Shown piece after piece: positions 1-420 of a stretch of DNA of 420 bases. Each line of letters begins with the position of its first letter. Position 1 is the stretch's first letter. A program made the position numbers and the translations under genes. The notes below the pieces were generated by a model. It saw nothing but the letters and a program-made list of their open reading frames with translations. It did no database searches and was not told where the DNA came from. This DNA comes from Escherichia coli (lineage in GTDB: Bacteria; Pseudomonadota; Gammaproteobacteria; Enterobacterales; Enterobacteriaceae). The DNA is taken from assembly GCF_003334335.1 (NCBI RefSeq), contig NZ_QOWQ01000191.1; one strand, given 5' to 3'.

Positions 1-420
1 ACAACGGATTTATCAGCAACGGAAATGGCCTGGAAGCTGTGGGAGCTTATGGGGGAGGTGTATTCGAACCGCTGGACTCAGAAGAACGGGGCCGCACCTT
101 CGAAGCTCTGGATTGCCCAGATTGGCACGATGACTGAACAGCAAATCCGGCTGGTCTGCCGTCAGTGCATGGACCGCTGCCGGGCGGGTGAAACGTGGCC
201 CCCAGACCTGGCTGAGTTTGTTGCACTGATTTCGGAGAGTGGGGCAAATCCATTTGGTCTTACGGTGGATGCAGTGATGGAAGAGTACCGGCGCTGGCGC
301 AATGAATCCTGGCGATACGACGGGAGTGATAAATACCCGTGGCCACAGCCTGTGCTGTACCACATCTGCCTCGAAATGCGTACCAGAGGGATTGAGCGCC
401 AGATGACGCAGGGTGAGTTA
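1..420 (+). CDS. P: Partial CDS (both ends outside the window) for a lambda P-family phage replication protein, the DnaB helicase loader; corresponds roughly to lambda P residues 38-174
   Basis: Frame 1 (codons starting at 1, 4, 7 ...) reads through all 140 codons with no stop: TTDLSATEMAWKLWELMGEVYSNRWTQKNGAAPSKLWIAQIGTMTEQQIRLVCRQCMDRCRAGETWPPDLAEFVALISESGANPFGLTVDAVMEEYRRWRNESWRYDGSDKYPWPQPVLYHICLEMRTRGIERQMTQGEL. Frames 2 and 3 both hit stops (tga near 131-135). Against lambda P as I recall it, the blocks match in order with conserved spacing: TMTEQQ vs TTMEQV; PPDLAEFVAL vs PSPGQFVAW; then 36 vs 37 residues to D-KYPW vs ESYPW; then PQPVLYHICLEMRTRGIERQMTQGEL vs KSNAHYWLVTNLYQNMRANALTDAEL (26 vs 26 residues). 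Comparison is from memory, not a database search. Confidence 0.85.

Follow-up and report, generated by a model that had tools for sequence, protein, structure and literature searches.

Results

The window and its surroundings

The sequence analyzed here, hereafter the window, is a 420-bp stretch of Escherichia coli DNA. It matches a prophage region of E. coli JE86-ST05 (NZ_AP022815 1197642-1198061) with 100% identity, and phage Rac-SA53 and the PPompW/Stx2a phages with ~90% identity; among 5426 complete E. coli genomes, 1246 contain window-related sequence. The source of the window is an E. coli lambdoid (Rac-like) prophage, and in the RefSeq record it is surrounded by a lambdoid early region, i.e., an exonuclease, dicB, the repressor and cro-like regulators, YdaT, the initiator, P and DUF1627. 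Two RefSeq genes are straddled by the window: the end of the initiator gene, read in frame 3, and 'replication protein P', read in frame 1 and annotated from an ATG at position 130.

Frame 1 of the plus strand is open across the whole window (positions 1-420) and represents the internal part of a lambda-P-family helicase loader gene, namely residues 25-164 of a 220-aa ORF (L001 5929-6591). The product matches Pfam PF06992 ('Replication protein P'), with E = 2.2e-9 for the window and 1.9e-15 for the full ORF, as well as PHROG 109 ('P-like helicase loader', E = 2.4e-62, residues 14-220), and its sequence matches in the PDB are the lambda P chains 8V9T and 8V9S. An AF2 model of a 188-aa query, built on 104 homologs, had a mean pLDDT of 82. 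When compared to the PDB using Foldseek, this model matched lambda P chains Z, V and Y of 9OA1, the DnaB-lambda P complex, with a probability of 1.0 and E = 4e-6 over ~200 columns, and besides lambda P no PDB match was better than E = 1. The model also superposed on 8V9S, the crystal structure of domain III, with an rmsd of 1.0 Å over 70 columns. As for gene context, a cro-like regulator, YdaT, a DnaT-like initiator and P were found in this order in E. coli, Serratia, Symbiopectobacterium, Klebsiella and a metagenome contig. These matches in sequence, fold and gene context therefore place the frame-1 product in the lambda P family of DnaB helicase loaders, as the initial annotation had it, and make it an already annotated member of a known, structurally solved family. 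From homology alone, we infer that it would bind and open host DnaB and deliver it to the origin.

Lambda P (9OA1/9OA2/8V9T, 8V9S; PF06992) shares its fold and domain order with the loader, and its gene likewise directly follows that of the replication initiator in the early-right operon; in the structural alignment, the two proteins are 16-19% identical. They differ in their initiator partner, which is lambda O for lambda P and a DnaT-like/DUF1376 protein for the loader.

Downstream of base 137, the window differs from Rac-SA53 (90% DNA identity) at 31 positions, 25 of which are third positions of frame 1; judging by this pattern, frame 1 is the true coding frame. Minus-strand ORFs, such as the one of 116 aa at 13-363, were dismissed as shadow ORFs because the Rac-SA53 substitutions fall at third positions of frame +1.

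The start codon of the loader gene

Both RefSeq and phage annotations start the loader at Met44 of the window (ATG at 130-132, plus strand, L001 6130; ATGACTGA, overlapping the initiator stop), which in RefSeq yields a protein of 153 aa. Frame 1 is open from an ATG located 72 nt upstream of the window (L001 5929), which gives the 220-aa ORF. The frame-1 protein upstream of Met44 is conserved in homologs down to ~47% identity (AWxLWExMGEIYSNRWTQKNGxxPSxLWIAQIG), while at the Met44 column itself, 26 of 82 homologs have Leu or Phe. A Shine-Dalgarno sequence (GGAGG, GGGGG or GAGG) followed by an ATG-CAx start lies 201 nt upstream of Met44 and is conserved in five diverged loci. Moreover, when the N-terminal part was added to the AF2 model, the confidence of domain II rose from 72-80 to 86-92, with an extra helix at residues 24-45. 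Conservation and modelling thus suggest that Met44 is probably an internal Met and that the RefSeq start lies too far downstream, favouring a loader of 215-225 aa over the 153-aa form. The RefSeq form would then probably lack the first 67 residues, including three helices of domain II, a probable truncation that matters for the annotation of such replication modules. Met9 of the window was rejected as a start because this position is Thr in most homologs. In the databases, the same loader-family gene is found with lengths of 140, 153, ~180 and ~220 aa.

Overlap of the initiator and loader genes

On the plus strand, positions 1-137 of the window belong to the 3' end of the initiator gene (DnaT-like/DUF1376), which is read in frame 3 and terminates with a TGA stop at 135-137 (RefSeq CDS L001 5100-6137). 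Its product is named 'DnaT-like ssDNA-binding domain-containing protein' by RefSeq and matches PHROG 1408/3992 and the NCBIfam DnaT domain. As a consequence of the longer loader form (start L001 5929), the loader gene overlaps this 3' end out of frame, and, as read from the two frames, positions 1-137 of the window are dual-coding, for the initiator in frame 3 and for the loader in frame 1. The overlap spans 209 nt in E. coli (L001 5929-6137), 191 nt in Serratia, 113 nt in Symbiopectobacterium, 215 nt in Klebsiella and 224 nt in the metagenome contig; in lambda, the two genes overlap by 4 nt, versus ~200 nt here. Compared to Rac-SA53, the overlap within the window contains 4 amino-acid changes in the loader frame versus 9 in the initiator frame, the loader frame being the more constrained of the two. 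The initiator tail presents a PxxxxxRGxxxxxxDCxDW pattern followed by acidic residues, which is conserved in the Klebsiella and metagenome loci and partly in Serratia. The sharing of ~110-220 nt between two frames, across diverged enterobacterial prophages, matters both for the annotation of these modules and for the co-evolution of the two partners. The shared DNA encodes the acidic C-terminal tail of the initiator and the N-terminal region of the loader; in lambda, the corresponding regions are thought to contact each other.

Several database entries touch on this gene pair. PHROG 15931 (482 positions, function not given) matches both the initiator (profile positions 1-347) and the loader ORF (279-482) over L001 5094-6591; positions 279-347 are common to both genes, and from this shared stretch the profile seems to mix, or to hold fused or frameshifted versions of, two overlapping genes. 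Two sequences of 291-292 aa (P0032 and P0081) combine PF07789, i.e., the DUF1627 of the downstream gene, with PF06992. In Rac-SA53 (KU052037 11382-11843), the P-family gene is labelled 'ydaV' and the initiator 'ydaU: primosomal protein I'. We take the YdaV of the E. coli K-12 Rac prophage to be a DnaC-like AAA+ protein; if so, the Rac-SA53 name reflects gene position instead of homology, and Rac-like prophages differ in their replication module.

A cluster of three cysteines in the loader

At positions 157-180 of the plus strand, the loader gene encodes a CxxCxxxC motif, C-R-Q-C-M-D-R-C, at window residues 53-60, within QQIRLVCRQCMDRCRAGETWPPDLAEF. The frame-1 translation confirmed the residues and codons originally reported for it, with Cys53 at 157-159, Cys56 at 166-168 and Cys60 at 178-180, all encoded by TGC. 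The 188-aa protein contains four Cys in total, C123 being the sole one outside the cluster. When this protein, with its four Cys, was shuffled, three Cys fell within 8 residues in 1.3% of the shuffles and formed an exact CxxCxxxC in 0.07%. At a Cys content of 1.15%, ~3e-4 CxxCxxxC motifs are expected per protein of the loader's size, so that a genome-wide scan would yield a few by chance, and for a single protein the motif is unusual.

The three Cys were retained in 80 of 80 viral contigs, with synonymous TGC/TGT changes in 5 of them; these loci are all near-identical (93-100%) and served as a codon check only, not as a measure of diversity. Retention despite synonymous change therefore points to purifying selection within the subclade, which is compatible with tight packing. 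A DNA- or RNA-level explanation for positions 157-180 was rejected, as the window (1-420) contains no Rfam match at E <= 1 and no inverted repeat, promoter-like or terminator-like site. A 17-nt imperfect direct repeat (82%, 103 nt apart) lies inside the loader gene at 141-157 (GCAAATCCGGCTGGTCT) and 244-260 (GCAAATCCATTTGGTCT) and is probably due to chance.

Conservation of the cysteines in close homologs and in the wider family

The close set comprised 104 homologs (43-98% identity); after removal of three aberrant rows, 101 were used. The initial annotation had tied the fate of the motif to the conservation of all three cysteines among close homologs; this was borne out for C60, which is Cys in 96 of 98 sequences, and not for C53 (Cys in 74 of 88; the 14 non-Cys residues are I9, V2, A2 and T1) or C56 (Cys in 70 of 90; the 20 non-Cys residues are L9, M8 and I3). 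Outside the cluster, 99 of 100 sequences have Cys at the C123 column; at H121, 79 of 100 have His and 19 have Gln. The rare losses, of C60 to Arg or Ser and of C123 to Tyr, are not coupled. The first position is Ile or Val in Brenneria- and Pectobacterium-type sequences, the second is Met, Leu or Ile in another group of homologs, and some sequences read C-L-C-Q-C, C-M-C-Q-C or the like. Only one subclade, made up of enterobacterial prophages (Escherichia, Salmonella, Klebsiella, Enterobacter and Citrobacter), has all three cysteines, in line with the earlier suggestion that the cluster might be lineage-specific.

To cover the wider family, 1.84 billion representatives were scanned exhaustively with HMMER, which produced 144 relatives at E <= 1e-3; the 90 of these that cover the motif region (18-60% identity) were aligned together with lambda P. 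In this alignment, the C53 column is mostly aliphatic (L41, M16, V10, I10, C5, F5), whereas Cys is the commonest residue at C56 (C44, A22, L14). At the C60 column, 65 of the 90 sequences have a gap, and with it a helix shorter by one turn; the residues there are otherwise C11, I6, V3 and A2. The C123 column reads V16, C13, A8, G7 and I4, and the H121 column W22, H16 and Q5. Neither the close nor the wider alignment contained a His or Asp replacement at the C53, C56, C60 or C123 columns, as would be expected if one metal ligand were exchanged for another. A further column, that of Ile69 of the query (Cys110 of lambda P), is Cys in 56 of the 90 wider-family members; this domain thus tends to use Cys in its core, though at shifting places. 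Each of these Cys columns behaves as an apolar position of small to medium size.

In lambda P itself, the aligned stretch is devoid of Cys, as previously stated: phmmer and MAFFT agree in pairing C53 with M89 and C56 with A92 and in placing C60 opposite a gap. They also agree that the loader is the longer protein at this point, by 3 residues and not by the ~4 originally counted. Cys123 and His121 align with lambda P V157 and W155, respectively, while Cys110 and Cys134 of lambda P correspond to Ile and to another non-Cys residue in the loader. The lambda P segment containing V157 and W155 (145-162) contacts DnaB (PMC12661323).

The cysteine helix within domain II

In both AF2 models, the three Cys lie in one continuous helix (residues 38-53 of the 188-aa query and 70-85 of the 220-aa ORF). 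According to AF2/DSSP, this is an amphipathic alpha-helix of domain II, covering window residues 46-61 (positions 136-183, plus strand), and in the full-length model the pLDDT of its block is 86-88. Cys53, Cys56 and Cys60 are located at i, i+3 and i+7, i.e., on successive turns of the same helix face. On a helical wheel, I49, V52, C53, C56 and C60 all fall within 70 degrees of the hydrophobic moment, and R50, R54, Q55, D58 and R61, whose columns are variable and polar in homologs, fall on the opposite side or at the edge of the helix. The only other Cys and the nearest His, which might serve as extra ligands, belong to His121-Ile-Cys123 (361-369, plus strand) in a helix of domain III. A structure prediction had been proposed as the means of judging the geometry of the cysteines and of finding a fourth ligand: it placed the three Cys along one helix, and the candidate fourth ligand, His121, is replaced by Gln in 19 of 100 homologs. 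It should be kept in mind that AF2 predicts structures without metals and cannot by itself exclude a metal site.

Directly after the Cys helix comes a WPPDLAEF loop (196-219, plus strand), whose W and P-P occur without exception in the close homologs (98 of 98). The helix pairs with lambda P residues ~81-96 in the alignment and the loop with R-P-F99-L-P-S-P-G-Q-F, such that Trp66 of the window, the aromatic residue of the loop, corresponds to lambda P Phe99; this column is W, F or Y in 86 of 90 rows of the wider family. A 2025 cryo-EM study reported that lambda P residues ~30-119 form a compact domain II, that five copies of this domain make up a crown above DnaB, enclosing the chamber in which Phe99 crosslinks ssDNA, and that each copy buries ~1000 Å2 against its neighbours (PMC12661323). 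In the same study, domains II and III were separate compact domains, with flexible links to terminal domains I and IV (PMC12661323). The Cys helix aligns inside domain II, and the motif therefore lies within a folded domain and not in a linker. The earlier placement of the motif between an O-interacting N-terminal part and a DnaB-interacting C-terminal part thus has to be revised.

Discussion

The cysteines as probable packing residues

The columns of the motif alternate between Cys and aliphatic residues, a pattern that would mark them as buried packing positions and not as ligands. In amphipathic helices with heptad-like apolar stripes, Cys can substitute for Ala, Val, Leu or Ile, and we found no difference between such helices and the one described here, which presents the same i, i+3, i+7 spacing, the same exchange for aliphatics and a polar, variable opposite face. 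In our favoured explanation, which we regard as highly likely, the three Cys would be packing residues of the domain II helix, assembled by accretion, and not a metal or redox site. As suggested by the alignments and the AF2 models, Cys53, Cys56 and Cys60 would contribute small apolar side chains to the buried face of the amphipathic helix, packing against the rest of domain II or against a neighbouring subunit. The middle Cys, being the commonest residue family-wide, would be the ancestral choice; the first would have taken the place of the usual Leu, Met, Val or Ile, and the third would sit in the one-turn helix extension found in part of the family. Of the two readings that were initially offered, a metal or redox site is thus left unsupported, given that its ligand columns are exchanged for aliphatics and its cysteines run along one regular helix, while the incidental reading is the one favoured by the aliphatic substitutions and the shared helix face, provided that incidental is taken to mean structural packing. 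Accordingly, the cluster is best viewed as a compositional quirk that should not be annotated as a zinc finger, an Fe-S motif or a redox motif.

Two findings count against plain packing. Within a clade whose members diverge to 43% identity, C60 and C123 hardly vary (98-99%), a degree of conservation that exceeds that of most apolar positions and could hint at a specific role, and the shuffling showed how rarely three Cys gather within 8 residues.

Weighing the alternatives

The near invariance of C60 and C123, together with His as the majority residue at position 121, is what speaks for a clade-specific structural zinc site, in which Cys60, Cys123, His121 and either Cys56 or Cys53 would hold domains II and III together. 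There is, moreover, precedent for a helicase-binding zinc domain in another loader family: the N-terminal domain of B. subtilis DnaI, likewise a non-ATPase domain of a helicase loader with clustered Cys including a CxxC, requires Cys67, Cys70, His84 and Cys101 for zinc binding and helicase interaction (PMC2673437). The fold of the DnaI domain is, however, unrelated to that of the loader, and whereas the DnaI ligands are essential, the candidate ligands of the loader are freely exchanged for aliphatics and share one helix face. Among the would-be ligands, C53, C56 and H121 vary in close homologs, C53 and C56 give way to aliphatics and never to His, Asp or Ser, and homologs with C-L-C-Q-C or C-M-C-Q-C are left with two or three possible ligands. 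The losses of C60 and C123 are uncoupled, and in the wider family the C60 column is C/I/V and the C123 column mostly V/C/A/G. As to geometry, the cysteines lie mid-way in regular helices in the AF2 models, three of them inside a single helix, and not on the turns, knuckles or helix ends where zinc ligands would be placed, and domains II and III are separate compact domains in lambda P (PMC12661323). We therefore consider this zinc site very unlikely.

Residues i and i+7 are ~10 Å apart along a helix, and so a mononuclear metal site built from i, i+3 and i+7 of the predicted regular helix is geometrically implausible. Equally little credence is given to a related proposal, in which an inter-domain zinc or thiol switch, built from C60 of domain II and C123 of domain III with the help of His121 and the neighbouring Cys56 or Cys53, would lock or release the autoinhibited loader crown of this enterobacterial clade, although, if true, it would constitute a metal- or redox-controlled step of helicase loading that lambda P lacks.

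In a redox role, Cys53 and Cys56 would form a reversible disulfide and so switch the activity of the loader during oxidative stress, and the CxxC spacing is indeed kept in 54 of 104 aligned rows and throughout the 80 near-identical contigs, across the synonymous codon changes. Each of these Cys is, however, singly replaced (by I/V/A or by L/M/I) in 16-22% of close homologs. In thioredoxin-fold proteins, CxxC sites occupy the helix N-cap after a strand, whereas here the CxxC is two turns into a 16-residue helix, its first Cys being 7 residues into the helix, and the protein is cytoplasmic and all-alpha in the model. A literature search on the thiol sensitivity of lambda P returned nothing relevant, and no thiol or redox literature on this protein was found. 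Such a disulfide switch appears to us highly improbable. An iron-sulfur cluster, for which the protein could provide its three clustered Cys and Cys123 as ligands, is barely conceivable. Radical SAM proteins use CX3CX2C and ferredoxins CX2CX2C...C, and the CX2CX3C of the loader fits neither; its ligand columns are not conserved, as would be the invariant Cys of an Fe-S motif, it is helical and not loop-like, and lambda P, the sole structural match below E = 1, leaves no Fe-S protein among the matches.

In a further reading, the apolar Cys stripe would belong to a protein-protein interface and not to the core of the domain, either between neighbouring domain II copies of the crown or with the acidic tail of the initiator, and the clade-specific Cys would tune the specificity for the partner. 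The surface that lambda P domain II buries in the crown (~1000 Å2; PMC12661323), the position of the Cys helix directly before the invariant WPPDLAEF loop and an initiator that belongs to a different family from lambda O are all in its favour. Nevertheless, the columns are apolar family-wide whatever the type of initiator, as expected of a core that determines the fold, and we hold an interface role to be very unlikely, preferring to see the three Cys as residues that pack domain II.

Domain II in other phage proteins

In many of the distant representatives (110-270 aa, E 1e-6 to 1e-3), the match is limited to the domain II part, corresponding to query residues 4-70 of the wider-family alignment and to the pattern W...W...L.......WPPxLxEFxxLC, and the remainder of the protein is unrelated. 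Going by these sequence matches, lambda P domain II may be a mobile module common to other phage replication proteins. The most conserved Cys of this module is the one that ends the EFxxLC motif (56 of 90).
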